NCBI GenBank assembly: GCA_021432655.1
Contig: MU271513.1
Location: forward strand, 1-51,228
Length of the DNA stretch: 51,228 nucleotides
Direction of reading: 5' to 3'
From: Atractiella rhizophila
Taxonomy: Eukaryota
Position numbers and translations under genes: made by a program
Notes under the pieces: model-generated
Seen by the model: only the letters and a program-made list of their open reading frames with translations
Database searches by the model: none
What the model was told of the DNA's origin: nothing
Shown: positions 10,056 to 51,228 of the stretch, piece after piece
Numbering within the stretch: the first letter of the stretch is position 1
How the letters are laid out: the number at the start of each line of letters is the position of its first letter

Positions 10056-11759
10056 CTTGACAGATTGAAGATTGAAGAAAAGGAGTGGTGATTGAAGTCA
10101 AAGAGAGGATCGGAGTCCTGCGCTGCAAGATGGGTGGACTGATGGGCTGCACGAAGGAAGATAAGCTGATATCCAAAGAGTTCCTGACCCAAACTTGTAC
10201 TGATAGGCGACACGGTCTGCCTTTTGAAAAAAAATACGAAAAGAAGGGAGGAGGGCAGTTGGAAGTCTGGCGGCTTAGAGGAAAGGAGAGGAAGAAAAAG
10301 CGAAGGAACAAGGGTTTTATACCCATCACCGGGCCCATCCCCAAAGATTGAAAGAAGTGTATCATAGAAACGCGCCATCTCTCGACCTCACTCCGGGATC
10401 CTGAACGCAGCGCAACAACGGATGGAATGAATGGAAAGCTGGACATCGTGACATTGATAGTAAATTATTCTCGACGCCTTGGCCGACCTTGGCAGCATTC
10501 GTCGCTGGTACCAAGTGCCAAGTTTCTTCACTCCCCTTTGCATCTCCGTTCTCTCTCCCGTCCCTTCCAGCTCTTTCCAATGTTTATGATAGATTTATAC
10601 TGGTTCTCGGGAACAGTATGCGCCAGCCAGTAGTGTGAATGTATGACAGCTTATCAAGCAGCTTTTTCATAAGCAATGGGCAGCAAATAATCTTAACCGC
10701 TAATGGGCAAAGTAGAGGAATTGCGCAAGCACTGGAGAAAGCATTGATATCAAGGAAAAAGATCGGGAGAAGTGAAGAACAAGCATGCCAAGCTCCCACC
10801 ACTCTCAAACGCGTCCTCACTCTTTCCAAACTGCGCTCCATCAATCGTTCCACCTGAGCATGGAGATGAAGCATTCTGATACCAGGTTGATTGTCTACTA
10901 GAATCTTACAAGGCCAGGTTCTGGAAATGTAAGTGTTGGAAATTGTTGGAAATGGAAGAAACAAGGTTTGAAGAAGTTGCCACGAACGCCAGAATCTCCA
11001 ACTCTAATAAGAATAAACAAGTGCAATCCAACCCATGTTCTCTGCCCAAACAACAAGATAGCCCTTTGAGGATCTTCAAGAATGGATCGTAGGGCATCCC
11101 ATGGGATCTGCATGGAAGGACTGGGTTGAACATGGCAGCAGTCAAGCATAGGAATCCAAATCCGTCGATTTCTCTTTCAGCTCGCCCAATCTCACGCTGA
11201 ACTCAGCAAGCAGCAATACCAGTGGCACGGTTGGATTTCCGCCCTTTTAAGCATCCGCATTCACTCGGCAATTCATCAGATGTTGAGATTGATCTGGGTA
11301 CATCGTGGTTTTCAAGATCAAAATCGAGATAGGCTTAAGTACGGTCCTTGATCGTCCTTCCTCTCCGCTGGATGAATGTCGAATGGACAAAGGGAACTTT
11401 ATGGTGTTCCCATCGCAGCGAGAAAAGAATGGAAGGAGGATAGACTGCCTTGACGGTTTGTCGGTTTGTTTGAATGAAGTCGGTGGGAACAAGGCGGTTC
11501 AAACGACCAGGTGCAAGGCCCTCCATCTTTCATCTTTCTTCCATCTTTGCCCAAACCACATTGGCACTTCAAAGTTTCTGTCCCATTTTCTAGAAGCAGA
11601 CGCTTCAAGGAATATAAAAGCAGCCCTTTCCTTGAAGAGTCTCCTCCATCAAGCGAAAAAAGGCAAGCTTTCTTCTCTTTATACCTTCTCCTCCTTCTCC
11701 TTCATCTAAGGATCTATACCCCTTCTTTCATCCCAATACCCGTCTAAACAAAAGCGAAC

Positions 11760-25194: not shown

Positions 25195-28100
25195 ATGTCT
25201 TCGGGTTATCACCAGCACCAACACGCCAATCCAGTTCCCTTCGCCATCCCACCCTCGCTCTCCCTCACAGGTCATTCGTATCCACCGCCTCCTGTGCCTC
25301 CTTCAGACTCTGGCCATCTCTCAGGTTCCGGGGTCGGTGTGAGAATAAGGAGCATGGAAGGGACTGATGGCTTGTGGGAAAAGGAAGTGCCTGCAGTCTT
25401 TGCTCCCTATGGATGTAGCGTTGTAGGGGCCAGAGGGGGAATCAGATGGAGGTGCGCATCACTCTCCGAACCTCGTTCTGTCCTTCCTCCTTCCTCCCTT
25501 TGAATTTCGAGAGAAGACCTCTGTTTGGAATTACTATGGCAGTAGTGTGGAACAGGAGGAACATTACGTCAATCCCTCCGCCTCCTCTCTCTTCTTCTCT
25601 AAGTTCACCCAGCTGATCTTCCTTTTTTTGTGTTTCTGAAGTTTTGGCATCTGTAACGCCTGGCTGTCGACCCTTCATCAATGGGCCAAGTGGAGCATCT
25701 TCCACTGGCAAGCCGAATTATTGTGTGGGAGGAAGTGAAATCTTCCACAACTGTAAAATTACCCTGATCGGATCGATGCGCTCTCGGCTATGGGACGTCT
25801 CCTGAGGTGTAAATTGAGGAAGAAAGAAGACAGTCAACGGTCCCCTTCGTCGTTTCTGATCGGTTTGGGCTGGCTCTAATTCTTCCAGATGGGCTTGAGA
25901 TGGGTCACTGGTCGGCTCCTCGCCTCCCTAAGACAGGATAGCAGACAAGAAAAAGTAGCAAAGGAGGATGTATTAGATGTAAAGTTACATCCTCATTAAA
26001 TGCTGCTGACAATATCGTTCTCTTTGTGTGTATGGTGTAGATTCAGTACCTCGACTTCCTTGTGTCAGATGCGGTGCTTTATCAACTCATAGTTCTCACA
26101 GAGTACACATTGAATTTTGTACGTTTTGAGAAGTGGCAAAGGAAGAAAAGAATAAAATGAATTCGGCCAATCTCAAGGAAGCATTTTTCATGGTCGCATT
26201 GAATAACTCCTTGTGTGCCGGTTTGTTTTTGATCGAACGAGTGCTTCGATCTAAATCAGGCATACAGTCTGTGTAAACTCGTTGCTCTCAGTACAACCTG
26301 GTGGCTTGTGGCTCTATGCTGCCATAAGATGGATCTGTTGACGTCATAAGTTGTCGCTTTTTCTAGAGTGTCTTCCCATCTTTTGCCTCCTTTTCCCCTC
26401 AGGTGGCTGCAACGACCATGTTGCCACTCCCGATCCTGCGTACTGATCCCATCTTTCTTCTTCCTCCCAGCTTGCCGTCCGAAAGCACCTCTGCTCTAGC
26501 CGCATCCTTTCCTCTCCCTCTCCCGCCACCTGAGAATATCCCCGGCCTCTATTCTACCTCAGGTTTCGACCTCCTCTCCATCCTCGCCCGCGTCGCCTCA
26601 CGTCCGAATCCCGTCATCAACCTAGGGCCGATAGACATGTCGTGCGCTTTCACCGTCGTTGATGCGCGCCAGTGGGACATGCCTATCGTTTATTGCAGCG
26701 AGACGTTCGAGAGGTTGACCGGGTATGAGAGGGGAGAGATACTGGGCAGGAATTGTAGGTTCTTACAGGTGCCTCATGCTGGTGTTACGCCTTCTGCTGG
26801 GGGAATGGGAGAGGGAGGTATCAGAGATGAAAGGGGGAAGTGGACGCATGAAGGAGCCGTGAATCATTTGAGGGAGTTCATCAAGGCTGGAAGGGAGTGT
26901 CAGGCCTCTATTGTGAACTATAAAAAGGATGGGAGAGCGTTCATCAATCTTGTCCGTCATCGCTCTGTTCTCTAGGGAGAGATTGATGGTATCATTGGAC
27001 AGGTGACTATTATACCAATATCGTGGGAGTCGGATGAGATTGCATATTTCGTGGGATTGCAGGTTGATTTGGTGGAGCAGCCGTTTAGCATTGTCGAAAG
27101 AATGAGGGACGGGACAGTAAGTTTCCTCCCTACACTTAAATGCGCATGACTGCTAAGGAAAGTAGTACATCGTCAATTATGCCGTCACACAGTCCACCAT
27201 TCCTCAGTTTCCTACTCTAGCCCAGCAGACGACAGTGAGTTTTGGAACAGAGGTACACGCAGCGCAGTGGGTAGAAGAAGAAGCTGAAACCTTCAATTAT
27301 GATGTTTCGCTCGCAATGTCACAGACCAATCCCCAAACTCAGTCACACGACTTTCTCCCAAATGTCCCACCACACCCTTCCGGCGAACACGAAGTGTCAG
27401 ACGACTCTCCGTCGAATACATTCACTTCTATCGGTTCTGGGGTGGCAGCCACAGGAATGGGCTGGAACGGTGGGAAGAAGCGGAAGCGCTCCATCCTAGA
27501 AGATTCAAATATTGAATCCATGCTGGCCTCCGCGGTGCAGGCGGTTGAGTCAACGGGGACTGGAGGGATCGAAGTGGATGAAAGCGAGAGAGGGGCGTGG
27601 AACGAGTGGATGCTGGATTGCGTGCGTCGATTGCTACTGATACGTGAAAAGAATGCGCGGCTTACAGATGCGATAGTGCGACGACTTCATTCATGTTCTC
27701 TCGCTCAAAGGGACGGTGCTTTATGTTTCCCCGAACACGGAGCAGTTTCGTTCGTCGTCCTTCAATTTATGTATTAGAACGAAGCTGATAAGTTCATTAC
27801 AGTGGAATACGAGGCGGCTTCCCTCATATCTCGGAATTGGGCAGATTATGTCCATCCAGGTTTGACTTTCCTCCCTGTTTGTCTGAAAGAGTATTGCACT
27901 GATCGAGCGCTGTAGCCGATGTCGTTGGAGTTATGAGAGATATCAAGGACATAACGAATACGGGAACTGTGAGGCTGCTGTACCGAGTAAGGAAGAGGAC
28001 CAGTGGGTACATTTGGATGGAGGCGAGAGGGAGGCTGGATGTTGAACAGTCTAAAGGGAGGAAGGTTCGTCTTCACCCATTTTAATTCCAACTTAAACTG

Positions 28101-28815
28101 AGGAGAGCTTTAGTGCGTTGTCCTAGTGGGACGAATCAAACCTCTGGATTCTCTGCCCTGGCCTCTCATTCGCTCCAACTCGTCAATTTCCACTACCAGA
28201 GACAACCGGGATTTCTGGGTTAAATTGTCTTCCACCGGAATCGTGCTATACACTACTGCAGCAGCAGAACGTCTCCTTGGATCTAGTGCAGAAAAATTCG
28301 TCGGACTATGTTTACCTGAACTGGACACACGGCGTCATAAAGAAATTCTTTCTGCTATCGAGAGGACACTAAAACTGGGAGCGGTCCAAAGCGTCCATCA
28401 TACCCTGAGGACCGGGATGGGATTCGACATTCACGTCCGTTCAGTCATGTTTCCCAATGGAAGAGGGGCAGAAGCAGAAGGGGAGGTGAACGGGATGAGG
28501 ACCATTTTTTGCAATATTGCAGAATTCGACCCATCCGATCCTGCGGCAGCCTCCGCCCCTTCGAATCACGTCTTCTCCCTCCCTTCAGCTCCTGCTTCCT
28601 CCTTCACCCATCACACATCGCCACACTATCCCCCTTTTGTCAACACAGAAGCTCTTTCCAGCGCCACTGACGCGGACGTCTTCGCGGAGTTGGAAGTGCG
28701 AGGTAGCACGAGCTGGCAGTATGAAGTACATAACCTGAAGCTGCAGAACAAAAAATTGAAGGAGGAGTATTCCGCGTTATTGTCGCTCAAGGAGAAGAAG
28801 CAGCTGAGATGTTGA
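25195..28815 (+). CDS. wc-1: White Collar-1 blue-light photoreceptor homologue (LOV + PAS domains, no C-terminal GATA zinc finger seen); multi-exon
   Basis: N-cap GLYSTSGFDLLSILARVASRPNPVINLGPIDMSCAF, LOV signature GRNCRFLQ, NYKKDGRAFINL and YFVGLQVDL. PAS motifs DDFIHVLSLKG and the WC-1-typical DVFAELE..STSWQYEVHNLKLQNKKL. The first exon 25195-25338 (alternative ATG at 26418) is less certain. Confidence 0.9.
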
Positions 28816-30959: not shown

Positions 30960-32399
30960 CTTCAAATCAATGACTGTAGGTATTCAAAAGAGTGTTCACT
31001 GAGGGAGAGCCGAGGTGAAGATCAGGTTGAGGAAGGAAATGTGAGGCCTGTCTTGTCTATATACAGAACCTAAGAGAATCCTGAAACGAATCTAGCTCGT
31101 CCTTTCGCGCGGAAGGATGGTCACAGCGCTAAATTCAAAGTCCAAATAACCCTCTAACATGGCATTACAGCAATAAGACGGAGCATACTAGTGACAACAA
31201 TAGAAAAAGGTGTTAGGGAGGTCGGGGCTCTCACACCTTGATGCCTCCGTGGAGTCTCCGTCTCCGGTCTACCACAGGACCAACACCATAACGGTAACAA
31301 AAGTTTATGCCAGCTGTGGGAACTCGGTTTGGTTCGTAAAATATTCCCCATCCACCCTGCCTGCCCGATGAGCCTGCCGCACAAGTACGATGTACATGCT
31401 TGTTGACCTCTTCGGCTTGAAAACTTGAGAATTTGATCTGGCGCTTGGCTAGTACTAATCAGGAGCGTTCCACTCAAAATAGAATATAGAAGCGGTTGTG
31501 ACTTTTCAGAGTAAAATTGTTGTGAACACCGAGCTTTCGCTCACAAGTGAACTCAAACGATGTCGCCTTCACACTCACCTAGACGTCATAAGCCCACAGA
31601 CTTTATAATTACAAGGGTGTTCAGCGCCTCCAGATTCCCTGCTGACCTGCTCAAGCTGGGCATCCAATTTTCAATTTTTTTTGAATAGAGTTCATTCCAT
31701 TCACATCCCAAAGTCCTTGTGCCGCCGGAACCGAGAATGAATGTTTTCTCTTCTTCTTCTTCTTCCCATTCCCAGCATCTCTGAACGTCTGGCACACTGG
31801 TGCCTTCGCGGTGTCTGATTACTCGGGGTGAGCTTGCAGAAGGCATGAAAGCTTGTAGGAATCATAAACGGAATGCCATTGACTCTATGGCGCTCTTGTC
31901 CTTCTTGGCTAGGCAGGACAAAACTCGCTTTCTTTGTCCAAAACAGTCGCCAATAGAAGATACTGGCTTCCTTTTTAGCGGCCAGCTTACAAGGTCCACA
32001 CGCGATTGTTTGGTACCTCTGCACTGAAGGTTGTTCGCAAGTTCGGCATAGCGGGAACCACATTCTGCTGCTGTGATACACCAACTGTAATGATTTTCCT
32101 TATAGGATTCATTTCATTCGTGTTTCCCTCTTGTACGTATCCCTTCAGCACTTCGGCATTGCTTTTCAACCTTGTCCACTCCACGAGCGATCCCGAGTCT
32201 CCGCCTCCCTAAGCCTGATGGACGAGGTGATCCGCGGTTTGAGACGACCAAAGATCGGGTTTCGCGTGAAAGCTGTTCGCGTCAGTCAAGTGTTGCAGCG
32301 CGACTCGGGGCCTGCCAGATGCACCTTTTTCTGATATCTAATAATAATGGGCAGGCTTGGCCATTTCCTTCTCTCATCTTCCCTAGAATTTGTTCAAAC

Positions 32400-34533
32400 A
32401 TGGTCACTGTCACTTCTCCTTTCCTTTCACCTTCCTTTCCGTCCTCCATACACCTTCCTGTTCCTGTTCCGCGACGGAGCGTGCCACGCTACTGCTTCAT
32501 TCTCATTCCTCTCGTATTCTTCTTCCTTAGCGCCTTCACTCTTTCACATCCAATAGTCCATGAACGCCTTCCTTCCACGATACAACAGCATCTTTCAGCT
32601 ACTCAGGAGTGGGTAGGAGGAACTGTGAAGTGGGCTAAGTGGCGGTTGGAATCCTTTCCATATTTCCCAATAAACGGCGCTGCTTCACGGGTCTCCAATT
32701 TACCCTGGACTCGAACAGAAGAATCTACCCTTCCGATAGAGCGTCCCCTCTCGGGTGACCCGAACGAGAAATTTCTTTCATATTTTCCCCACTCAGGCTT
32801 CAATAATCAGCGGGTAGAGCTCCAAAATGCGCTCGCCCTCGCCAATTATCTCAACCGTACCCTCCTAATTCCTCCAATTTGGGTGGGGAAAAGCCTTCCG
32901 TCGATAGGAAGCTACAGAACGTTGAAATGGAAGTGGTGGAAAGCGGCGAGGAAGAGTTCAATTTTTCGACTGCAAAGGTCTCAAAGGCCTGATTTAGGAG
33001 ATTCCTTCATTTCTTGGGACTTTTTGTACGACCTTGATTTTGTCAAGGACGAACCGAGGATAGCAAATAGGTGGTACGGTGATGGAACAGGTGGCGAACC
33101 GGGGATGACGGAGAAGGGAGCTTTGTTTGATGCTGGTGGAGGAGATCCTAATAAGGATATTGTACATTTTAATTTTTGCATATTGTTATTGTTTTACTGA
33201 CTCTAGAACCATGAACAGTTCATTCTCGCAGATGAAGGCTTTCCATACGATCTCCAATTCTCATTGCCTCGTGACCATTCTCTGCCTCTCATCTCCCCCA
33301 TCCCACCAGGAGTTGACTCTAAATTTCGTCGCACCGTCAATCTCAGAGCACTGGCTGAACTGCCTCAGAAGCTTCTCCTTCTTGGCTCGATATTTGGTTC
33401 CACTCGAATCGAGATCGGTGGCCCTCATCGCCCTCCTTATTACAATGGGCGACTCATAATCGATCAGCCAAAAATCAACAGAATATCTAAGTGGATAGCG
33501 AGAAGTGTAAGGGAGACTGGTTGGAGAATGAAGGTTGGGAATTTGAAGAAAGGATACTTGAGCATATTGGTACGAGTAGGAGATGGGGTAAGTTTTTTCT
33601 ATATACCCATCTTAAACAGTATCCCTGAAACAGTGTTGTGAAGTCTTTCAAAACAAATGTTGTGGCGAATATGAAGGAACTGTGGGAGCGGACGGTCCGA
33701 GGAATCCTTGACGATGCGAACGGCTCTGAATCCTTGGATGAATCGAAATTTCAGCAAACGATGGCTTTACTGCGCGAATTGGAGTCAGAACGGCTAATAA
33801 AGCAGCGACGTCTCTCGCATCATCGTAACCGCAGTCTCCTCCCTAGATGGCGTGGGCAGAGTCTAGGAGGAACTGAATCGGCTTGGAGCTGGTATGAGGA
33901 TCCGCTGGAGGATGATACTCCAGTTTTCGAACAAAATTCTTCAGCTGTCAAGCCTGTAGTGCAGGATGTGTCCCAAATGCTCCTTGGTTCTGTATCGATG
34001 GAGAAGAGACTTCGACGTCGCGATATCCCGTCACCCCCTGCCGAAAACATTAGCATTCCGACGCTTGAATGTCACGCACCTCTCCACACAAATCCTCTTC
34101 TACAGCCCTTCAACCAGCCAGTATGGATGGCCACTGATGCGCGCCATCCTGCAGAAGACGAAAACATAGCCAAATTTTATGCCACCTTTCCTTGCCTCTT
34201 CACATTCAACGATATGACCCAACTGGATCATCCGCTTGGAGAGGAAGTGCGGCAGATTGCAGACTGGAAGAATATGGAAGACAACGGAGCGAAAATTGGA
34301 GGTCAGTATCCACTCTCCTGACATTCATTCAGGCGACTGAAGTAACTGCTTAGGTTTCATGATCCCCATCCTTGATTCTGTGACGGCAGCTCGAGCCCGA
34401 CTCGTGTATCGTGAGGATTTTAGTCGTTTGCTCGTGCTCCTTGCTGACGTCCCCTGCAGCAACATATGGCAGCACATTTGGCTACTATGCCGCCAATCAA
34501 CTTACGCAAAATTATCGTCACGACCCCTATTGA
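32400..34533 (+). CDS. O-fucosyltransferase-like (GT-B, CigA-like) type II membrane glycosyltransferase; multi-exon
   Basis: N-terminal TM segment (YCFILIPLVFFFLSAF), EKFLSYFPHSGFNNQRVELQNALALANYLNRTLLIPP, YLSILVRVGDG, VWMATDAR and a C-terminal TYGSTFGYYA. Confidence 0.8.
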
Positions 34534-34903: not shown

Positions 34904-37900
34904 TCAATCAACATACCTCCCATTCTCTTGTGCCGAGTTATAGCACCTCCAAATAGTGCTGTCTCCACCCTTTAACTCGTTGATGTCAACATCCCCTAAA
35001 GGGCATTCTGGATCGTCATGTACAATCACAACCGTTCTACGATTCTCGGTTCTTGCATCCGATGATGCCCCGTCTAGCCTGCTGCTGCTAGGTCTGGCGT
35101 CCAATGATCTCCTTCTTGCCAAAGAGCTTGGTTGGAGCTTTGCCAATTCCTCCATTGAAAGGAGAGGGGGACTACGGAGGACAGTGACAGATGCCTGATC
35201 GAAAGTTTTTGAATGCGATAAAGGAGGCACAACAGGTACCGCGTCTGCAACGGAATTGACACTAGATTTGCCAGAATTTTTATGGAATAGACTTCTAATC
35301 ATCGTTCTGAAACCAGATCGTTTCCTCGAATGCGACGGGGTCGAAGTTGTCGTTGCCTCACTAGTCGAGACTGTTCTCTTCCTAGAATTATGATTTTGCA
35401 ATATGTAGACGCGAGATGGGCTTCGGTCTCTGGCTGAAGGACGCGAAGTAGGGATCGAGATGGAAGGCGGCGAAATGCTGTCGGGAGAATGAATCGAGAC
35501 GCCAGAGGAGGCAGTTGGCCTCTGGGAGTGTCCGCTGGCGCTCAGGTTGTTCCCTCGTCTCTCATGCCTCTCTTCGAGCACGCCGGCAGGATCCAAGGGT
35601 TTTGCATTCGCTATCATTGCTACCATGTCGGGATTTTGAGGTCCATTGGGAGTGAGCTCTGATGTTTCTCCATTCTGGCACTTGACGGGTGTAGGATTGG
35701 GAGGCGGGGGAACAGGGAACGAGTCGCCTTGATGAAGTGGGATTCGATCGTTTGTTGGTGTTCCAGCGAGATCCAGGAAACTTGGCTGGCTGTCGAGATG
35801 CGTCGCTGAGGGAGGGAGTGGTATGAGCACCGGCGCAGGGATGCGTTCAGCGGGGCTCTTCGGGGTACGAGGACGTAGAGGTTTAGAAGGTAAGGTTACA
35901 TCTATTCTTCCAATGCTCGGGGTCTGCGTCACCACCGCACTTTCGAGAAGAGTTTGCTTCAGCGCCACCATATCCTCTGAAACCTCAGGAGGTCTCCTTC
36001 TCAGCAGAGGAGAGTCGGGTAATTCTTCGATGGGCGTAGTTGCGTTCTCTTCTGGAGCAGACTCTGTAGCGTCCTTAGGTTCGCAATGGCTACACTCGTC
36101 CTCCGGATGTGAAACAGGGAACTGCAGGTGATTCTCCTCCTCTTCGTCCAGGCGAAGCTCCTTTCCATTCACTTGAGTTTCAGAATACTGAGACGACGAA
36201 ATCTTCTCCTGCTCCATGGCATTCTCAACAGACCCGCTCTCTCCTTCCTGGAATCCCGGCGTCTTCTCGAGTTCTCTGTCTGGTGTTGCTCCCAGGTTGA
36301 CATGATTGGTTTCGTGCTCGACTGAAAGATGCGGCATCGCATTCTCGTTAAGGTATCGATTGGAATCTGCTTCTGGAAGATCTGTATCTGACAACGTGCG
36401 CGTGATCTCCTCTGGAGGGTCGTTAAACCAATGTTCATCCTCCTCTTCGTCTTTTCTCTCCTGCATCCCAAGCAACAGAAAATAAGCAAATGAATAGAAA
36501 GGCAGGACAAAACCAACCTTCCAATCTTCCTCCCAGCCCGCTCTCCTCCTGTGCTTAGCCAGCCTAAAAGGCGTCCTCTGCGCCTCGATCTTCCTCACAA
36601 ATCTCCTTCTGCGATCATGGTACCTCTCGCTCCTCTCTCCCGTGGCGAAAAAGCACAAGCGCATCTGCCTCATCTCTTCCTCAACGAACGGTTCCAGCTC
36701 CTCCTCCCTGTCCTTAGGATCTAGCTCTCTAGCGGCAAGGACCATATCTTCCAGACTCGCCAGGCGCGTTCGATCCCGCGTCGCCCATGGCGCGCATCCG
36801 GTCCTGCCTCCTCCTTCGGAAATTAAGGTGCGGATGCGAATCCACATCTCCTCCTCTCCAGCGCTGAGGACGAGATCAACCAACCCTAGCTGTTCCGCCT
36901 CACGCGCTCCCATCGGCTTACATCCCACACACACCTTCTTGCTCACCTCTCCCCCCATTCGCCCCCGATAACTGAAGGTATGGTACTCGCTCCCGTACAA
37001 CCCCATAGACCTGTAGCTTGGATTCAAAACTACACTGTTCTCCATCCATACCATCGAACACGCAGCCGCCAGAGCCACTCCTCCAGCCGAGGCATTCCCA
37101 CGCAAGTGGGCCAGGGTGGGCAGCCGGAGGCAGAGTACGGAGAGTACGAGATCGTTGATGGCGTTTATGTTGGAGAGAGAGGCATCCGCTGGTGAGCTGG
37201 CGGATTCTATGATTCCAAGATGGATTCCGTTCGAGAAGTACATCTTGGACCCTTGGAGAACCACCAGCTTGGCTCGTGGGAAGCTGTTCCAACATCCACA
37301 TGAGCTTTATGTTATTTTATGGAACAAGGAGTTACGTTACCGTTCAGGTGTGATGCTCTGGATCAGGTCTCTCAATCTTTGGCAATGTTCGGTGGAGAAA
37401 GCGCCATTATAGACATCCCAACCGACGACAATGACCTCTCCCTCCTCCTTTTCCTCGATCAAAAACTCCTGATAAGTCCCCACCCTCCTCTCCGCTCCCC
37501 TCAACTCGATCTCCCTCACTCCATCCATCTTCCCCGGTGCCCTCCTCTCCAAAACACCAACAACAGGCAGCTTCGGATTCGTACCCTCCCTCGTGTCTGC
37601 CTTCGCCTTCGGTACCCTCGCATGAGAGATCCACACCGCACCCTCCCTACACCTGAGCAACACCGCTCCTCCCCTTTTCCCGACAATCTCTCCCGGCGCC
37701 GTGTTTCTCACCATCCCTTCGAAAGAGGACGGCGAGGCTTCGACAATACCACCGTAGAGGAACAGGGCGGGACCTAGCGCCTTGCTCAAGACTCCAGGTT
37801 GGGAGTCGGATGCGCGAAGCTTGCGGGAGACGGAGGAGGCGGTCTCTATGACAGGGTTGAAGTCCCTTTCTGCCGGTTTGAGGAGGGGACGGCTGCGCAT

Positions 37901-39019
37901 GGGTCCGTTTCCTGATCGTGGACCGGAGGAGAATGAAAAAGAGAAGCTGGAGGGACGGAGGGGAGGTGTGGAGAGGTGCGGAGAGAGAGGGAGAGAGGTG
38001 GAGAGGGAGAGAGCGCTGGAGAGGGCTCTATGGATGGATTGGATCGAATGAGGGGTGATGTAGTGCCGATAGAGAGAGGATTTGGTCTCAGTCTCGAAGG
38101 TAAGCAGGGCGAACTCGGAAGTCGCCCAGACAGGACCTGCATCAAACTGTCCCTTTAGTCAGTACGTGTACTTATCGAAGGCTGTTCGTTGAAGAGTTCT
38201 ATTTCCCACGAAGAGACGAAAGAAAGAGGGATTGAAGACACACCTCTTGGGCGGCCTGAAAGACAGTGACTCCCCACCACTTCCTGTGCTCTTTCTTTCC
38301 ATCACTCGCCAGATGGGACAATGCTCTCATAGGATCCTCAATCTCTCCGTCGTCGCCCATGAGTAGCCAATCGAGGGAGGAAGGACCAGCATCACCAGGT
38401 GGACCGGGCTATTCACATTATCATTGGTCAGTTACGACGTAATATGAATGAACAGGGCCTGAATGAAGAAAAAAGGGATGAAACTCACATGCAGGACGAG
38501 GACGAGATGATTCTCCCAGATGACCTTGGGAACTCTCCTGGTTAAGAATGGAGCGAGTATGACGTCTGGCCTAGCGAGTTCGACGGCCTCTATCATCCTC
38601 TCTTCGCTCGTCCCAATCTCAACCGTCACCTGAGGACGGAGGGTTGTGTTCCCTACAACTTTTCCTCCCTCAAGTTCGTTGCTTTCATCTGCTCCTGCTC
38701 TTCCGCTGACGGGAGGAAGGGAAGGTTGGACGGGCGGTTGGAGCGAGGGAGGGAGAGAAGTGGAGGTGACTGAGCGAGAGAGGGGAAGGGAGAGTCCGAC
38801 GGTGGAAGTAGAGCGGGAGTGGGAGAGACGGAGCGATTGGCGGCGCGCATCTGCGAAGAATATTTTCGAGTTTCGCTGTGGCGTCGGTGGCGATGGAGAC
38901 GGTGGTGAGGTCGATGTTGGGAGGCTGAAGAGGGAGTTCTGGAGGTGGATGTGGAGGGACTGGGCGAGGGAGTTGTATGCTGTGACGAGCATGAGGATCT
39001 TGAGAGGTGCTTCCTCCAT
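34904..39019 (-). CDS. hypX: HypX/HoxX-like protein: N10-formyl-THF formyltransferase domain fused to an enoyl-CoA hydratase/crotonase domain, with a long disordered C-terminus; multi-exon
   Basis: KILMLVTAYNSLAQ, PDVILAPFL, VLHPGPPGDAGPSSLDW, WGVTVFQA, FDAGPVWA, KSSLYR, LRASDSQPGVLS, GAVWISH, YNGAFSTEHCQRL, FSNGIHLG, NINAINDLV, GNASAGGVALA and LNPSYRSMGLYGSEY. This is the characteristic HypX/HoxX motif series. Confidence 0.88.
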
Positions 39020-40491
39020 GTCGGTATCCCTCTACCACTATTCGAAATGACTGTTCGAATGATTATTCTAGTGAGATTGCCCGATGGAGGGAAGGAAATG
39101 GAGAGGAAACGAGAGAGGCTTAAATATGAAGGCTACGTTCCCAGCATCCCGCTTTCCACTCTTTCGGTGAGGAGCCATGAGAAAAGGGGTTCATGGAACT
39201 CGACTAAATCATGAAGCATGAAATGGATACTCCAACTTGCTCCAACTGACTCCAAAGCTAAAGCATAAAGCATAAACAGCAGGTAAAGCCATCCTAACCT
39301 ACCATCTTGAAGCCGCGATATCAGCATGGATGCATAATGCTGGTGGATGTCTATCAGGATACTACTCTAGCAGTTGTCATTTTTGGAACACTGTTGTCAC
39401 CTGCCATCACTCTCCTGCCCATTGCGCTTCTTAAGCCTGGAGGCGACGCATCTTTAGGATGTGGGATGATATTAAATACTGAATGAACAAGGGCTTTCTG
39501 GAATGGAACTGGCCTTGTCTGCATCCATCGACGAACACTCTGCATCTCTCATCTCTCTCTCCCCTCTCACGCTGTCAGGGAGAGCAACCTGGTTCCTGGA
39601 TTTTGCGCGTCGAGTGTCAAGTGCCAGCAGTTGGTTGCTGCTACACGATCGGTCGAAGAAAGTCTCGTATGTGATCTTTATTGACTCTTGCCTTCTCGAC
39701 GATGAGATGAGAGATGTGTTCTCTCTTGCCAATTCGATATTCGAGTTGTGCAGCCTTCATATCTCCATTGTCTCAAACTCAAACACATATCGACAACTGC
39801 AATTCTTAGGCAAGAGATCTTGGTTCATCGTGACATCTTTCTTGTTCCTAGCGTTCGTTCCTCAGTCTTGCAATTTGACAAATGGTTCAAGTTGTCCTAA
39901 GTTGACCTCCCTTCTTATCCTTGCGTCCTCACGTTCGTAAGGATGTTCTTCCATGCGTGTGGATCTTTGGATTGGAATGCTGCTCTACTGTATTCCTTGT
40001 TTCTTCTTCCTCTTCTTCAGAGTCAGTTTCACGTATCCTTTCGCCGCTCTGCCTCCTCGTAGCTCTAGTCCAGATCTGACCTATTTCCTCAGTTTCGTAT
40101 CTCACGTTCATAACCGATTTCATCTCGATCTCTAGGCGATGGACGCCTCAGCCTTCGGAAAGACGCCTAAGCCTTCTTCATTAAATCCCAGCGACAATGA
40201 AGATCCTGGGAATTTATCTGATGACGACAACGAATTCACCGCCGGTTCGCGACAAGTTCCACCGTCTAATGAAGGCGTCGGAGTTCAAAATCTTTCAGTA
40301 CTGCAGCTGTACTGTCAACCCAGCCGTTTCTTGACCACCAAACCGACAATTTTTGGCCCACAGTTTGGCTTCCTATCGCGTACCGCATCGCCGGTTGCCC
40401 CCAGAACTGCTACTCCAACACCTTTCTCATCCCCACCTACTCCCAAGCTCAAGCCGTCAAGATTTTCCAAGTCCCCGAGAATGTCAAGAAG

Positions 40492-43400
40492 ATGAACCCA
40501 CAAGGCGTCCGAATCCTCGCTATTGACAACGGCGGCATCTGTACCTTTTCCACGCTTTACATGCTCGAAGTCATCATGCTCCAAGTTGGAGATCTCCTCG
40601 CCGTTCCTGAAGGAGAAGAGGTTCGACCCTGCGATGTTTTCGATCTCATCTGTGGCACTTCTACGGGAGGATGGATTGCCCTCATGCTCGGACGATTGGG
40701 AATGACCGTTCGAGAATGCATCCGTGCGTACGAACAGATCGTGCAGCAAGTCTTCTCCGAAGAAACTCCAATCTCAAAAGGAGGCTGCGTGTACTCTGCG
40801 GAGAGGCTCGAAGCCGTCTTCCACGACATCATTGCTCGACATCCTTCATCATCTGTGCCGTCGTCCCATCTTCCTATGAAGGATGACAAGATCGCAGATC
40901 GATGCAGAACTTTCGTTGTCTCAAGATATGAATCAGACGCCGTCGTTGCGACAGAGATGCGCACTTACGACGTCCGCCATGCAGCTCGCTTTGCTGCTCA
41001 ATGTGCAGTGTGGGAGGCAGCAAGAGCAACTTCCTCTGATCCTGACTTCTTCCCTCCTATCGTCATTGACGAAACGAAATATGTCGCCATGGGAAACAAT
41101 AACCCCGCAGCATTAGCGATTGACGAGTCAAAGAGGATTTGGGGAGAAAGAAGCCAAGTTGCCTGTCTTGTATCTTTGGGGTCAGGCCTTGCTCAGGCTG
41201 TCTCATTGGGCCATACGATGGCTCAGATTGAGCGGGCTGTGAAGGCCATCGTCGAGGATTGCTCCCGCGTGGCAAATCAGGTGAAAATGATGATGCAAGA
41301 ACGCCGTCTGGGTCATCGCTACCACCGCTTTTCCGTCCATACAGTGGGAGGCATCAAGTGGGAAGAGTGGGAGCAAACTCAAGTCGTGGTCGGTCGTACG
41401 AAGGCATATATGGACGCGATGGGTCATGAAGCTCGTCATGCTGCTGACCATCTCGTACAAGGTATGATCTCTCACCTCCCGTTTTGTTACTGTGCTGATG
41501 TTCTGATAGTGTGCAGTGAACGTATTGCAGTTCGTCGAAGGTTTCCGTTACCGCCTCCAGGATCTTGCTTTGGGCGAGAGGCCGAAATCCAACTTGCGAG
41601 AGAGGCTATCCTTAGCGGCCGTCACGTCGCGATTGTCGGTGGATCTGGAAATGGAAAGTCCACTGTTGCACTCAACACATTGCACACAGAGGAGATCAAG
41701 CAGGCCTTCGCAGGCACTCGAGAAGATCTCCGCTTTTGGGTTCGCTGTGACAACTTTGACAACTTTGCCGGGCTTTCAGATCACATTTGCAATGATATCT
41801 TCGCGCTGTCTCAGTCTAGCAAGACCTCACTGGAGAATGTGGCCACCTACTTTGGAAGTCGAAAATGTCTTCTTGTTCTGGATAACTTTGAAACTCCTCT
41901 ACGTGCTGACAACGACAAGAAAGGAGACTTCTTCCGAACACTTCTTTCAAACAACTCAGGCGGGTCGGTGCTCGTCGTGGCCCATCGGGGAGATCAAGCA
42001 GAGTCTTTAGGTGTGAAGAAGCTCGCACCTATGGAGGAGCAGGCGTGGGTGAAGTTTGTCAAGGTCTCAGTTGGAAGTTTGCCGAAAGCCGGTGCACTGG
42101 AACTGTTTGCAGATTCTTATCAGCGAGAAGATGAGTTCTCACATCAGCTGGTCAGAAGCCTAGTTCAACAGCTGGACTTCCATGCTTTATCCATCAAGCT
42201 ATTTGCTCTACGGGCCAACGAGGATCCAACCATGACACTCGAGGAATTGGTAGGCGAGTGGCAAGAGAAAAAGACTAGCATTTTATGGGATGAGGATAGC
42301 AAAGACACTATAACCCTCAAAACCTCCATATCGTTCTCCCTCGATTCTCCAGTTCTGTGCAAGCATGGGAAGGGCGGTTTTTTTGCGCTTGCCCTCCTGT
42401 CGTGGGTGCCTGACGGTTTATCCTACCACGATTTGTCAACACTCCTATCCAGTTCTTATGAGCATAAGGATATCTTCAAGGTTGTCGGTGTAATTTCGAA
42501 GATTGGGCTTGCCAATGGTCTCAAAGACACTCTCCGTATGCTAGCTCCTATTCGTGAATACCTCAACAACCGTGTCTCCCATTCCGAATCACCATTTTCA
42601 ATACCTCTTGCTTCCTCATTGCTGCCTCTTTCATACCACCTCATGCAGAAAGCTGAGACAAATATTCAACAGTTTGAGATCCACAAGGATCAACACGCAC
42701 TGTTTCAATTCCGTAAACAATACCCAAACCTTGAACATGTCCTGCTGAGGAGCATGTTATGCCTGTCAAACCCTTTACCAATCCTGCAGCATTTGGAGAA
42801 GACATCGGAGTTTCTACGCTTGAAACATCGGCTCTCAACTTCACTGTTTCAACGGGCGACGCATGTTGTGAACATGGCACTGGGAATGCCCCTGTTTCCG
42901 GGTCACAGAGAGTCTGAATGGTTAAGACTAAGTTGTTCGCTGACAAGGTCCCTCGGCCATTGCTTTTATGCCCATGGCAAGAATGAGGATGCTCTGAAGG
43001 CATTTGAAGAGGCAAAGGTGCTCTACATGGAAGTGGGAGATCGACAGGGTCAAGCCAACTGTGTCTGCAGCATCGGGGAGATCGATTTTCAATGTGGGCG
43101 CAATGAGGATGCTCTGAAGGCATTTGAAGAGGCAAAGATGCTCTACATGGAAGTAGGAGATCGACAGGGTCAAGCCAACTGCGTCCGCAGCATCGGGGAG
43201 ATCGATTTTCGATGTGGGCACAATGAGGATGCTCTGAAGGCATTTGAAGAGGCAAAGGTGCTCTACATGGAAGTAGGAGATCGACAGGGTCAAGCCAACT
43301 GCGTCTGCAACATCGGGGAGATCGATTTTCGATGTGGGCGCAATGAGGATGCTCTGAAGGCGTTTGAAGAGGCAAAGATGCTCTACATGGAAGTGGGAGA

Positions 43401-44220
43401 TCGACAGGGTCAAGCCAACTGCGTCTGCAACATCGGGGAGATCGATTTTCGATGTGGGCGCAATGAGGATGCTCTGAAGGCGTTTGAAGAGGCAAAGGTG
43501 CTCTACATGGAAGTAGGATCTCGACAGGGTCAAGCCAACTGTGTCCGCAACATGGGGGGGATCGATTTTCGATGTGGGCGGAATGAGGATGCTCTGAAGG
43601 CATTTGAAGAGGCAAAGGTGCTCTACATGGAAGTGGGAGATCGACAGGGTCAAGCTCACTGTGTCCGCAACATGGGGGGGATCGATTTTCGATGTGGGCG
43701 CAATGAGGATGCTCTGAAGGCATTTGAAGAGGCAAAGGTGCTCTACATGGAAGTGGGAGATCGACAGGGTCAAGCCAACTGCGTCTGCAGCATGGGGGAG
43801 ATCAATTTTCACTGTGGGTGGAATGATGATGCTCTGAAGGCGTTCGAAGAGGCAAAGGTGCTCTACATGGAAGTGGGAGATCGACAGGGTCAAGCTCACT
43901 GTGTCCGCAACATGGGGCGGATCGATTTTCGATGTGGGCACAATGAGGATGCTCTGAAGGCATTTGAAGAGGCAAAGGTGCTCTACATGGAAGTGGGACA
44001 TCGACTGGGTCAAGCCAACTGCATCCGCAACATCGGGGAGATCGATTTTCAATGTGGGCGGAATGACGATGCTCTACAGGCGTTTGAAGAGGCAAAGCGG
44101 CTTTACATGGAAGTAGGTGATGTATATGGTGAAGCACATTGCTGCGGTTCAATAGCTGGTGTTCTGCAACGTGCAATTCATAGAAGGTCACCGCCAGCAA
44201 GTGGTGCTGCAGGTGTGTAG
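40492..44220 (+). CDS. Fungal NLR-like protein: patatin-like domain + STAND P-loop NTPase (NB-ARC/NACHT-like) + highly conserved TPR repeats
   Basis: RILAIDNGG, PCDVFDLICGTSTGG, VWEAARATS and NNP for the patatin domain. Walker A GGSGNGKST and Walker B LLVLDNFE. Ten 40-aa TPR units. A probable in-frame intron near 41462-41515. The start may extend to ATG 40139 via an intron at about 40245-40306. Confidence 0.88.
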   Translation: MNPQGVRILAIDNGGICTFSTLYMLEVIMLQVGDLLAVPEGEEVRPCDVFDLICGTSTGGWIALMLGRLGMTVRECIRAYEQIVQQVFSEETPISKGGCVYSAERLEAVFHDIIARHPSSSVPSSHLPMKDDKIADRCRTFVVSRYESDAVVATEMRTYDVRHAARFAAQCAVWEAARATSSDPDFFPPIVIDETKYVAMGNNNPAALAIDESKRIWGERSQVACLVSLGSGLAQAVSLGHTMAQIERAVKAIVEDCSRVANQVKMMMQERRLGHRYHRFSVHTVGGIKWEEWEQTQVVVGRTKAYMDAMGHEARHAADHLVQGMISHLPFCYCADVLIVCSERIAVRRRFPLPPPGSCFGREAEIQLAREAILSGRHVAIVGGSGNGKSTVALNTLHTEEIKQAFAGTREDLRFWVRCDNFDNFAGLSDHICNDIFALSQSSKTSLENVATYFGSRKCLLVLDNFETPLRADNDKKGDFFRTLLSNNSGGSVLVVAHRGDQAESLGVKKLAPMEEQAWVKFVKVSVGSLPKAGALELFADSYQREDEFSHQLVRSLVQQLDFHALSIKLFALRANEDPTMTLEELVGEWQEKKTSILWDEDSKDTITLKTSISFSLDSPVLCKHGKGGFFALALLSWVPDGLSYHDLSTLLSSSYEHKDIFKVVGVISKIGLANGLKDTLRMLAPIREYLNNRVSHSESPFSIPLASSLLPLSYHLMQKAETNIQQFEIHKDQHALFQFRKQYPNLEHVLLRSMLCLSNPLPILQHLEKTSEFLRLKHRLSTSLFQRATHVVNMALGMPLFPGHRESEWLRLSCSLTRSLGHCFYAHGKNEDALKAFEEAKVLYMEVGDRQGQANCVCSIGEIDFQCGRNEDALKAFEEAKMLYMEVGDRQGQANCVRSIGEIDFRCGHNEDALKAFEEAKVLYMEVGDRQGQANCVCNIGEIDFRCGRNEDALKAFEEAKMLYMEVGDRQGQANCVCNIGEIDFRCGRNEDALKAFEEAKVLYMEVGSRQGQANCVRNMGGIDFRCGRNEDALKAFEEAKVLYMEVGDRQGQAHCVRNMGGIDFRCGRNEDALKAFEEAKVLYMEVGDRQGQANCVCSMGEINFHCGWNDDALKAFEEAKVLYMEVGDRQGQAHCVRNMGRIDFRCGHNEDALKAFEEAKVLYMEVGHRLGQANCIRNIGEIDFQCGRNDDALQAFEEAKRLYMEVGDVYGEAHCCGSIAGVLQRAIHRRSPPASGAAGV
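42982..44160 (+). repeat. 120-bp tandem array (9 near-identical units + 1 diverged) encoding TPR repeats
   Basis: Units begin at 42982, 43102 ... 44062. The consensus is NEDALKAFEEAKVLYMEVGDRQGQANCVRNIGEIDFRCGR. Confidence 0.95.
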
Positions 44221-49997: not shown

Positions 49998-51228
49998 CTC
50001 CCACTCGACAAAACAGTGATGCTGAAATCGCAAAATCAGAAACTCGTAAAAATCAAAAACTAAGAAGTTGTTCTCCCACTCGATGAAGCAGCGCTTGGTT
50101 TTGACACCAAAGATAGTAAACTGCAGAGATATTCGTGTTTCCCCTTTTCTAATGGTTTCGTGAAGATGTCTGCAATCATTTCTGTTGTGGGACAGTATCT
50201 GAAATCGAGAATATTGTTCGCTTGTGCCTCTCTGATCCAAAATAACTTGATGTCCACATGCTTCATTCGTGAAAAATGTTCTGGGTCGTGTGCATTTTCA
50301 AGAGCTGCTTTGTTATCGTTAAATATCGGTAGTGCCCGTTCTTGCTTTCTTCCCATTTCTTCAAATAAACTCCGATACCAAACTCCTTCTACTCCACCAT
50401 GTGTCATCGCTAAGAACTCGGCATTTCCTGTGGAGAGTGCTACTCCATCTTGCCGTTTGCTACTCCAACTGATCGGTCCTTTGCCTAAGAAGAAGGCAAA
50501 ACCCGACGTTGATCGTCACGTGTCTAAGTCTCCGGCATAATCTGCGTCTGTATACCCACAGAAAAATGGACGGGAGTCCCCTTCACTTTGTAGGCCATAT
50601 TCCAAACAATAATGTTTCGTAGTTCGCAGGTAACGTAAAACTCTCTTGACTGCCTCCCAATGCTTTGGCCCTGGATTAGAAGAAAATTTCCCAAGGTGAC
50701 CCACAACCCAAGCTATGTCAGGGCGCGTTGCAATAGCAAGGTAGATTAAGCTTCCTATCGCATTTAGATATGGGACCTTTTTCATGTATTCAATCTCTTC
50801 TAGTGTGTTTGGGCAATCTGCTTTTGAGAGCATGTTCCCTGAGTCGTAAGGAGTGGAGACTGGACGACCTTCATCTGTCATATTGTACCGCTTCAGCACT
50901 GCATCAAGATATCGATGTTGATGCAGGTACAGTCGACGATTTGGACAATCTCTGGCTATCTCAATTCCAAGGTAAAGGCTGGCATCACCATTTTCAACCA
51001 TTCGATAACGAGTGTGGAGCTTCTGTTTGACACGATCCATTATAGCTCGGTCATTTGAAGCAAGAAGAAAGTCATCAATATGTACTGGTGTTATAACGAA
51101 TTTTCTGTTCTTTTCCCAGACATAGATTGAATGATCACTTTTACACCTCTTGAAACCATCCTCAACAAGTGTTTTATCAAGGTCTCTGTTCCAGCAACGT
51201 GCTGATTGATGAAGGCCATAAAGTGACT
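49800..51228 (-). mobile_element. Ty1/copia LTR retrotransposon, 3' part (RT-RNase H, PPT, 3' LTR), truncated by the window edge and disabled by an in-frame stop
   Basis: RT motifs SLYGLHQSARCW, VHIDD, YLGIEI, PYLNAIGSLIYLAIATRPDI and HWEAVKRVLRYL. RNase H motifs YTDADYAGD, RSTSG, SWSSKRQ, DNKAA, KHVDIK and ADIFTKPL. TGA at 50516-50518 interrupts the frame. Confidence 0.95.

Follow-up and report, generated by a model that had tools for sequence, protein, structure and literature searches.

In this study of a 51,228-nucleotide stretch of Atractiella rhizophila DNA (contig MU271513.1; hereafter, the window), we describe an expressed, intron-containing, full-length fungal relative of HypX (HoxX), which belongs to a large and uncharacterised fungal branch of a family that is known from bacteria. 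HypX of Aquifex aeolicus and Cupriavidus necator is an N10-formyl-tetrahydrofolate (formyl-THF)-dependent CO synthase that takes part in the aerobic maturation of [NiFe]-hydrogenase. To our knowledge, it is the only enzyme known to form CO from formyl-THF, work on it has been confined to its role in hydrogenase maturation, and we know of no fungus with a [NiFe]-hydrogenase or a HypCD scaffold. The whole active site has nevertheless been kept in a large and old fungal clade, which implies either a second biological use of this chemistry or a fold that was turned to a related reaction. Judged from the sequence, we lean towards the view that the window gene encodes a catalytically competent family member that acts independently of hydrogenase, and CO production by the fungal enzyme may reasonably be inferred.

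The similarity to HypX extends over both domains. In phmmer comparisons with Aquifex HypX (PDB 6J0P), E-values of 7.2e-31, 8.1e-18 and 9.5e-8 were obtained for the open reading frames (ORFs) that cover exon 4/5, exon 3 and exon 1, respectively, and exons 1, 3 and 4 matched chain residues 45-95, 127-167, 202-342 and 349-577 with their order preserved. The alignment runs from end to end and, on these scores, the similarity is far above chance. Pfam recognised ECH_1 (2.4e-15) and Formyl_trans_C (2.9e-6) in the gene; Formyl_trans_N was matched neither by the window exons nor by P0082 and P0016, two fungal homologues. The earlier note on this DNA had proposed a true homologue of HypX in which neither domain is missing, and these E-values and Pfam matches bear it out: a formyltransferase-like N-domain is followed by a crotonase-fold C-domain on one polypeptide, which is the layout and order of the bacterial proteins (A. 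aeolicus, PDB 6J0P and 6J1F; C. necator). The best NCBIfam score of exon 4, 48.6 bits where the cut-off requires 300, does not make it an enoyl-CoA hydratase equivalog; NCBIfam holds no HypX model, and hence no curated HypX cut-off, and the bacterial HypX P0031 likewise matched none. The AF2 model of P0082 (pLDDT 90.8, pTM 0.90) is predicted to match A. aeolicus HypX over its whole length, with both domains aligned by Foldseek (E 2e-51, target-normalised TM 0.90-0.91); it speaks for the window protein by proxy, as the modelled fungal homologues are at most 44-48% identical to it. After the HypX chains, the next matches of this model were single-domain crotonases and formyltransferases (E ~1e-11 to 1e-12). 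The N-terminal hydrolase domain of 10-formyl-THF dehydrogenase (ALDH1L1/FDH) and Met-tRNA formyltransferase share the formyltransferase fold and the His/Asp pair with the fungal protein, and in FDH, too, the formyl group is accepted by the thiol of a phosphopantetheine (PMC6802093). Unlike the fungal protein, however, they have no crotonase domain, and in the model comparison they appear as weaker, single-domain matches (E ~1e-10 versus 2e-51 for HypX).

The active-site residues were mapped using the 6J0P alignments, in which the chain numbers equal the native numbers plus 20, and the residue list of PMC6802093, which names His74, Asp80, Asp109, Tyr416 and Glu426 as catalytic. The formyl-transfer triad His74/Asp80/Asp109 is present as His177, with whose codon (38491-38489) exon 1 ends, Asp183, which closes the PGPPG-Asp motif that follows, and Asp234. 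The decarbonylation pair Tyr416/Glu426 is present as Tyr591 and Glu600 in NPS-Y591...LYGS-E600-Y (chain Tyr436 and Glu446). Thus, the motifs H-PGPPG-D, DAGPVW and NPSY..LYGSEY, which had been read as apparently intact, are all there, and the alignment to Aquifex HypX that had been suggested as a check finds every residue listed as catalytic to be aligned and conserved. In HypX, CoA is bound constitutively and is contacted by Ser194, Gln195 and Asn306 at its 3'-phosphate and by Gln15, Arg131 and Arg542 at its diphosphate (PMC6802093). By alignment, the window protein shares five of these with the bacterial enzymes (Gln15, Arg131, Ser194, Gln195 and Asn306), and the Arg542 position is occupied by Lys732, as it is by Lys in 120 of 121 aligned homologues. 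Across a set of 192 fungal-type proteins of at least 500 aa each, Asp80 and Asp109 are invariant and His74 is found in 191 (one gap), while Ser194 and Gln195 are each kept in 190 and Asn306 in all. Tyr416 and Glu426 are each present in 192/192 of these proteins and in all 121 rows of a smaller alignment. In a comparison of the fungal and bacterial sets, 95 alignment columns held the same residue at a conservation of at least 85% in both.

The surroundings of these residues differ between fungi and bacteria. Arg81, which directly follows Asp80 in the G-D-R-G motif, is Arg in 75 of 80 bacterial rows and in none of 52 fungal rows, where Ala or Gly is found instead (Ala184 in the window protein). 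Trp428, two residues past Glu426, is Trp in 75 of 80 bacterial rows and His in 52/52 fungal rows, and in the larger sets His occupies this position in 192/192 fungal-type and 2/75 bacterial-type sequences (His602 in the window protein). Two further columns of the crotonase domain changed as well: Met/Phe of most bacterial rows is Ala in 52/52 fungal rows, and Leu is Tyr, Trp or Phe in 51/52. In total, 19 columns discriminate the fungal clade from bacteria; the window protein is bacterial-type at four of them and lacks both bacterial signature residues, Arg81 and Trp428. Because these two were replaced throughout the clade at or near catalytic residues, identical chemistry should not be assumed, and the acyl pocket may have been remodelled, given the Met/Phe-to-Ala column.

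These observations are at the centre of the strongest alternative, in which the crotonase domain was repurposed and the formyl group of formyl-THF, once it is on enzyme-bound CoA, would end as formate (a CoA-mediated formyl-THF deformylase) or be released or used in some other way without CO. The clade-wide changes near the second active site favour it, and crotonase-fold enzymes include thioester hydrolases. It also agrees with the lack of a hydrogenase that could use CO: no hyp or hydrogenase Pfam domain was detected in the 35 ORFs scanned within the 51-kb window, which is the part of the genome covered by the search that the earlier note had advised, and bacteria and archaea are named in an excerpt of PMC11216029 as the organisms that encode [NiFe] hydrogenases. 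Among four bacterial loci examined, two had hyp genes directly upstream of hypX. We nonetheless consider this alternative unlikely; Tyr416 and Glu426, the pair that is invariant in the fungal-type set, are the residues at which R. eutropha mutants show a HypX-minus phenotype (PMC6802093), and His at the Trp428 position is not confined to fungi.

The preferred reading, a competent enzyme that is independent of hydrogenase, follows the bacterial reaction, in which CO is made from N10-formyl-THF via formyl-CoA according to an excerpt of PMC12134894. Tightly bound CoA in the N-domain would accept the formyl group, after which the CoA arm would swing to the C-domain, where formyl-CoA would be decarbonylated to CO and CoA. 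As fungi offer neither a known HypCD scaffold nor a [NiFe]-hydrogenase as a recipient, the CO would be released, either to act as a signal or antagonist or as a one-way outlet by which free tetrahydrofolate is regained, or it would be passed to some other acceptor. If the fungal enzyme does make CO, fungi associated with plants and animals would have an additional source, linked to folate, of a gas that is both a signal and a toxin, and the natural replacements of Arg81 and Trp428 would provide eukaryotic variants with which the bacterial mechanism could be compared. A bolder version, which we regard as decidedly doubtful, is that Dikarya possess a dedicated CO synthase that needs no haem and is fed from the folate one-carbon pool, that its conserved Cys-Tyr-Tyr tail at the C-terminus passes on the enzyme, or what it makes, to a partner (a carbonyl-accepting metal centre or a localisation machinery that directs the CO output), and that CO is a regulated metabolite in interactions with plants, insects and nematodes.

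Compared with bacterial HypX, the fungal clade has an additional C-terminal module. An acidic motif, DEEE-x-D-x-F-D, lies C-terminal to the crotonase domain in 160 of the 192 fungal-type proteins, and a strict F-x-C-Y-Y motif is found near the C-terminus in 159; both were absent from all 75 bacterial-type sequences. This module, consisting of the acidic helix region, a variable disordered linker and the Cys motif, probably serves regulation, localisation or contact with a partner that replaces HypCD, and its conserved motifs are a concrete handle in the search for such a partner. Folding of the Cys motif back on the core had no support in the AF2 models of P0082 (pLDDT ~55-65) and P0073 (46-48). 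The Atractiella protein stands out further by its 518-aa tail, which is the longest among those compared, contains no Pfam domain and carries a degenerate Cys motif, and by a 103-aa insert in exon 1 that is missing from other homologues. This insert is not an intron, since it is kept in the mRNA: the X8 contig is unbroken across it, and no canonical splice sites are visible. An extra intron at a GTATGT near the stop was also rejected; it would span only ~24 nt, and the frame as read ends with the terminal motif of the fungal clade. The disordered tail and insert, the short linear motifs conserved in the tail and old names in databases, 'sensor hoxX' among them, would suit a mainly regulatory or scaffold protein, whose enzyme fold senses folate or CoA, whose tail is an interaction platform and which has little or no turnover. 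The five catalytic residues, however, are invariant clade-wide, which would be unexpected for a purely ligand-binding sensor, and the long tail and insert are lineage-specific (median length of fungal-type proteins ~758 aa versus 1274 aa), and we judge this explanation to be very improbable.

The gene lies on the minus strand (39019-34904), exactly where the earlier note had placed it, and its five exons comprise 3825 nt of coding sequence for a product of 1274 aa (Table 1). The frame opens with an ATG at 39019-39017, downstream of an in-frame TAG at 39034-39032, and continues unbroken across 1274 codons to a TGA at 34906-34904. All four GT..AG introns are spliced out with exact borders in RNA-derived contigs of run X8, and introns 1 and 4 are also bridged by contigs of the root metatranscriptome X2. 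The side given for each joint is its shorter flank in letters, for which the rule was 31; the X8 flank of intron 4 (25) falls under it. A public A. rhizophila protein is 98% identical to the product. In the public Atractiella gene model P0001, intron 4 is read through. The flanking genes are eukaryotic or fungal, namely a patatin-NACHT-TPR (NLR-like) gene, an O-FucT-like gene, a eukaryotic carbonic anhydrase and a copia reverse transcriptase; the NLR-like and O-FucT-like neighbours provided no functional lead. Although the family is otherwise bacterial and the GC content at 36-38 kb is 0.55 compared with ~0.49 for the window, the spliced RNA contigs and the intact frame rule out that the gene is a bacterial contaminant, an artefact of assembly or a pseudogene in decay; the fungal neighbours and the near-identical public protein also speak against it, and we give this explanation practically no weight. 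Hence, the earlier view of an intron-bearing fungal gene, rather than a bacterial contaminant, stands.

Table 1. Exons, introns and notable segments of the HypX-like gene in the window (residues of A. aeolicus HypX in brackets after the equals sign).
Feature	Position	Strand	Description
Exon 1	38489..39019	-	aa 1-177, first beta-alpha units of formyltransferase-like domain; X8 contig continuous 38489-39200
Low-complexity insert	38630..38938	-	Ser/Pro-rich, 103 aa (aa 28-130), within exon 1; skipped by 6J0P alignment
Intron 1	38409..38488	-	80 nt, GTGAGT..AG; joint in X8 (side 165) and X2 (side 51)
Exon 2	38244..38408	-	aa 178-232; PGPPG-Asp183 (= Asp80), then Ala184 at bacterial Arg81 position
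Intron 2	38147..38243	-	97 nt, GTGTGT..AG; joint in X8 (side 74)
Exon 3	37341..38146	-	aa 233-501, final codon split; formyltransferase C-terminal subdomain, linker
Exon 3 residues		-	F-D234-AGPVW (= Asp109), Arg259 (= Arg131), SDS347-Q348-PG (= Ser194/Gln195), VYN479GA (= Asn306)
Intron 3	37284..37340	-	57 nt, GTAACG..AG, phase 2; joint in X8 (side 120)
Exon 4	36518..37283	-	to aa 756, crotonase-fold domain; GNASAGG
Exon 4 residues		-	Tyr591 37015-37013 (= Tyr416), Glu600 36988-36986 (= Glu426), His602 (bacterial Trp428), Lys732 (= Arg542)
Intron 4	36461..36517	-	57 nt, GTTGGT..AG, in frame; joint in X2 (side 56) and X8 (side 25)
Exon 5	34904..36460	-	aa 757-1274 and stop; Ser/Pro/Glu-rich 518-aa tail; X8 depth in 30/30 bins
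Acidic run and W-F-N-D	36419..36448	-	aa 761-770; window version of DEEE-x-D-x-F-D
I-W-R-C-Y-N	34937..34954	-	aa 1259-1264; degenerate F-x-C-Y-Y copy

The gene had been singled out as one notable case. Instead, its product is one member of a fungal clade that contains well over a hundred proteins among the matches listed and includes rusts, smuts, Tremellomycetes and many Ascomycota. In an unrooted IQ-TREE analysis (LG+C20), fungi (28 rows) and bacteria (30 rows) were split with an SH-aLRT support of 100, and within the fungi support was 99 for Ascomycota, 100 for Ustilaginomycotina and 100 for four rusts with one unplaced EukProt transcript. In a FastTree of 132 rows, the 52 fungal-type rows also formed a single clade. 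The groups inside the clade track fungal taxonomy, and the Atractiella protein splits off early on a long branch of unsettled position, with a best identity to homologues of 44-48%. These protein trees indicate that the fungal clade is single and ancient. The earlier suggestion of an old horizontal transfer is compatible with one fungal clade with taxonomy-like internal groups in a family that is otherwise bacterial, and a single old acquisition would fit the tree, although this tree is unrooted and neither analysis gave the fungal clade a bacterial sister group that would point to a direction or a donor. That HoxX-annotated fungal proteins exist, as the earlier note had stated, agrees with the protein homologue searches, which list relatives from Dactylonectria, Verticillium, Colletotrichum and Ceraceosorus under names such as 'hydrogenase maturation factor hoxX', 'ClpP/crotonase' and 'formyl transferase C-terminal domain-containing protein'. 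The Atractiella protein has the clade, the signature residues and the C-terminal motifs in common with them. The literature searched contained no work on a HypX or HoxX from fungi; in one fungal paper that contains 'hoxX' (PMC5491491), the term occurs only in the reference to Lenz et al. 1994. In a biased sample, the named matches of the clade were prominent in rusts, smuts, Colletotrichum, Verticillium and entomopathogenic Hypocreales, as well as in nematode-trapping Orbiliomycetes and root endophytes.

Members of a fungal HypX family are already visible in databases, under names such as 'hydrogenase maturation factor hoxX', 'sensor hoxx', 'ClpP/crotonase' and 'formyl transferase domain-containing', and a literature search, from whose reach subscription-only papers and supplements were excluded, found no published study of fungal HypX/HoxX. 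These members form a variant of HypX, a eukaryotic clade without hydrogenase context that is marked by signature residues and a C-terminal module of its own, and the window protein is a divergent member of it with a long insert and tail. The similarity to HypX is carried by four stop-free stretches on the minus strand, and five exons (table) form one open frame of 3825 nt (1274 aa), which is interrupted by introns of 80, 97, 57 and 57 nt and starts at the first ATG downstream of an in-frame TAG. All four introns are missing, with exact borders, from contigs of the public sequencing run X8 (shorter joint sides of 165, 74, 120 and 25 letters); because these contigs are spliced, X8, whose kind is unrecorded, was taken to be RNA. 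Introns 1 and 4 are also bridged (sides of 51 and 56), in a close relative, by the root metatranscriptome run X2, which is RNA on record, and 7-16% of the sampled words were present in four root metatranscriptomes, three of which were mapped onto the window. A single X8 contig is continuous over 38489-39200, which rules out an intron in the Ser/Pro-rich 103-aa stretch of exon 1 and makes it a coding insert. The closest public protein, the 715-aa Atractiella rhizophila model P0001 (98% identity), begins at an internal Met and translates intron 4 as protein (V-G-F-V-L-P-F-Y...), and is therefore truncated; it lacks the formyltransferase half altogether.

Coordinates of the HypX-like gene, other window features and one bacterial locus
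Feature	Position	Strand	Remark
Carbonic anhydrase ORFs	9024-10097	-	Two ORFs, each matching one half of a eukaryotic-type (alpha) enzyme; probably a single gene with an intron between them
PAS-domain ORFs	26367-28815	+	PAS_9 at 1.4e-12; may be an intron-containing photoreceptor or sensor gene
O-FucT-like gene	32106-34321		Flanks the HypX-like gene
HypX-like gene, exon 1	39019-38489	-	Joined at GT..AG sites
HypX-like gene, exon 2	38408-38244	-	Joined at GT..AG sites
HypX-like gene, exon 3	38146-37341	-	Joined at GT..AG sites
HypX-like gene, exon 4	37283-36518	-	Joined at GT..AG sites
HypX-like gene, exon 5	36460-34904	-	Joined at GT..AG sites
Match of P0001	34904-37060	-	Begins within the crotonase domain
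Patatin-NACHT/STAND-TPR protein	40273-44220	+	Flanks the HypX-like gene, divergent; single ORF, 1315 aa, with patatin-like phospholipase, NACHT/STAND NTPase and TPR repeats
Reverse transcriptase	50516-51226	-	RVT_2, Ty1/copia type; extends past the window end
hypX, then MHYT-repeat membrane protein (Nocardia flavorosea)	L074:7857-8693	+	Bacterial locus

The Pfam domains Formyl_trans_C (2.9e-6) and ECH_1 (2.4e-15) were detected in exons 3 and 4, respectively. The solved structure nearest by sequence was A. aeolicus HypX, which the three large exon ORFs matched at E 7.2e-31, 8.1e-18 and 9.5e-8, and ordinary enoyl-CoA hydratases reached only 7e-7. The earlier note had recognised three motifs, H-PGPPG-D, DAGPVW and NPSY..LYGSEY, as those of a HypX enzyme; mapping onto A. 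aeolicus HypX, in which an offset was applied because the PDB chain numbering is native + 20, proved them to be real and correctly interpreted. The five catalytic residues named in PMC6802093, His74, Asp80, Asp109, Tyr416 and Glu426, all align with identical residues of the window protein, i.e., His177 (the last codon of exon 1), Asp183, Asp234, Tyr591 and Glu600, as numbered from a multiple alignment of homologues. The same text lists Arg9, Gln15, Arg131 and Arg542 as contacts of the CoA diphosphate and Ser194, Gln195 and Asn306 as contacts of its 3'-phosphate. Gln15, Arg131, Ser194/Gln195 and Asn306 correspond to Gln20, Arg259, Ser347/Gln348 and Asn479, while Arg542 is replaced by Lys732, a Lys that is found in 120 of 121 aligned homologues, and Arg9 by Ala, as also in the cyanobacterial-type P0031. 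Two database orthologues, P0082 (Dactylonectria, 730 aa) and P0073, were folded with family alignments in place of the window protein, which gave models with a pLDDT of 90.8 (pTM 0.90) and 91.0, respectively. When the P0082 model was compared with the PDB using Foldseek, the top matches were eight A. aeolicus HypX chains (E 2e-51 to 8e-48, target-normalised TM 0.89-0.91, 32-33% identity), followed by single-domain crotonases and formyltransferases at about E 1e-11 to 1e-12.

Conservation was assessed in 290 aligned sequences of at least 500 aa (192 fungal-type, 75 bacterial-type and 23 unclassified), the classes being defined by the Arg81 and Trp428 columns, which are thus circular in this set. 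Asp80, Asp109, Tyr416, Glu426 and Asn306 were each present in all 192 fungal-type sequences, His74 in 191 (with one gap), and Ser194 and Gln195 in 190 each. A separate alignment of 52 fungal and 80 bacterial rows, classified by the N-terminal motif, contained 95 columns with the same conserved residue in both sets and 19 that discriminate the two clades. The Arg81 column has Arg in 75/80 bacterial and 0/52 fungal rows (Ala 41, Gly 6, Val 3, Ser 1), and Trp428 (75/80 in bacteria) is His in all of the fungal rows. Similarly, a crotonase-domain column with Met or Phe in most bacteria is Ala in 52/52 fungi, and the Leu four residues after Trp428 (78/80) is Tyr in 42, Trp in seven, Phe in two and Asp in one. 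The window protein keeps the bacterial-type residue at four of the 19 columns, which agrees with its early, long branch.

According to PMC12134894, which summarises work by the Lenz group, CoA receives the formyl group of N10-formyl-THF in the N-domain of HypX, and the resulting bound formyl-CoA is decarbonylated to CO in the C-domain. Since the complete set of residues that serve the two steps and tether CoA is invariant across an old clade, the most economical reading of the alignments is that the fungal enzyme would perform the same two-step chemistry and that CO would be released or passed to an acceptor other than HypCD. A serious rival, in which the second step is altered in fungi and formyl-CoA would be hydrolysed to formate or released, is retained mainly because of the clade-wide replacements adjoining Asp80 and Glu426.

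The fungal-type proteins have a median length of about 758 aa compared to 581 aa for the bacterial type. A stretch of acidic residues that closes with [FW][DN] follows the crotonase domain in 160 of the 192 fungal-type sequences, and [FWLM]-x-C-Y-Y, the Cys of which is most commonly the fifth- or sixth-last residue, lies within the last 60 residues of 159; both are a fungal feature and absent from bacterial HypX (0/75 for each). In the P0082 model, the acidic motif and the next helix (about residues 641-690) have a pLDDT above 90, and the Cys motif was placed without confidence in both models. In the window protein, E-E-E-D-E-H-W-F-N-D immediately follows intron 4, and a Ser/Pro/Glu-rich tail of 518 aa, in which no Pfam domain was found, precedes I-W-R-C-Y-N, whose Cys is 13 residues from the end. 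This terminal motif is in the same frame as the tail and thus lends independent support to its translation.

In the first homologue search, the best 120 of 1323 matches were examined for motifs: H-P-G-[PA]-P-G-D-[AGV]-G was found in 78 and the bacterial G-D-R-G in 34, and eight were fragments. Exon 4 matched 906 clusters of 50%-identity representatives at E <=1e-3 and 45 at <=1e-30. Among the matches listed in a second homologue search, with a Tilletia member as the query, carriers were found in Ustilaginomycotina (Tilletia, Ustilago, Sporisorium, Moesziomyces, Ceraceosorus and others), Pucciniales (Puccinia, Melampsora, Phakopsora, Cronartium, Austropuccinia) and Sordariomycetes (Colletotrichum, Verticillium, Fusarium longipes, Dactylonectria and many Hypocreales), and in Orbiliomycetes and Dothideomycetes; Cryptococcus depauperatus was among the matches listed in the first homologue search. 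The ESM Atlas cluster of P0082 has 206 members, 97% of which are Eukaryota, for the most part Ascomycota. On the prokaryotic side, at least 597 of the 601 pattern-matched stretches listed from a genome collection encode a relative. Six members (P0011, P0013, P0014, P0098, P0274 and P0024) carry odd source names, including 'RNA polymerase II CTD kinase beta subunit', 'Beta-glucosidase', 'Protein-S-isoprenylcysteine O-methyltransferase', 'SGT1-domain-containing' and 'C-type cyclin', the last of which is an evident mislabel; these names are probably mislabels or the result of fused gene models.

An unrooted IQ-TREE phylogeny (LG+C20 PMSF, SH-aLRT) was built from 58 rows, i.e., the window protein, 27 fungal proteins (taxon-named or EukProt), 16 named bacterial loci and 14 further bacterial proteins, including the deepest unnamed ones. 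The split between fungi and bacteria had a support of 100 on either side of a long internal branch (0.68 + 0.41). Ascomycota (99), Ustilaginomycotina (100) and four rusts with one unplaced EukProt transcript (100) formed groups, and Atractiella and Cryptococcus were long basal branches in an unresolved order. In a 132-row FastTree, all 52 fungal-type rows formed one clade with a support of 100. These trees fit a single origin that would predate the divergence of Ascomycota and Basidiomycota, with vertical inheritance and losses thereafter. Given the lack of a root, and with no bacterial group sister to the fungi in either the 58-row or the 132-row tree, they show neither the donor nor which way a transfer went. 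The EukProt transcript P0310 (822 aa), which was the only match from a general eukaryote transcriptome collection among the matches listed, groups inside the rusts (Melampsora/Cronartium) and is thus no evidence, among these matches, that the family extends beyond fungi.

[NiFe] hydrogenases are described as encoded by bacteria and archaea in PMC11216029. The earlier note had proposed a search of the genome for other hyp or hydrogenase genes; in the 51-kb window, no such domain was present in the 35 ORFs scanned. In contrast, hyp genes lie directly upstream of hypX in two of the four bacterial loci examined, namely HypA, HypF and HypE in Variovorax and HypD and HypE in Nitrosomonas; in Nocardia and Scytonema there was no hyp gene within 6 kb. 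The 1315-aa neighbour of the fungal gene has a fungal NLR-like architecture, and the more distant window genes include PAS, RRM, carbonic anhydrase and SacI genes and a copia RT fragment. In Nocardia flavorosea, the gene after hypX encodes an MHYT-repeat membrane protein, and a role in sensing gases or metals has been suggested for the MHYT domain.
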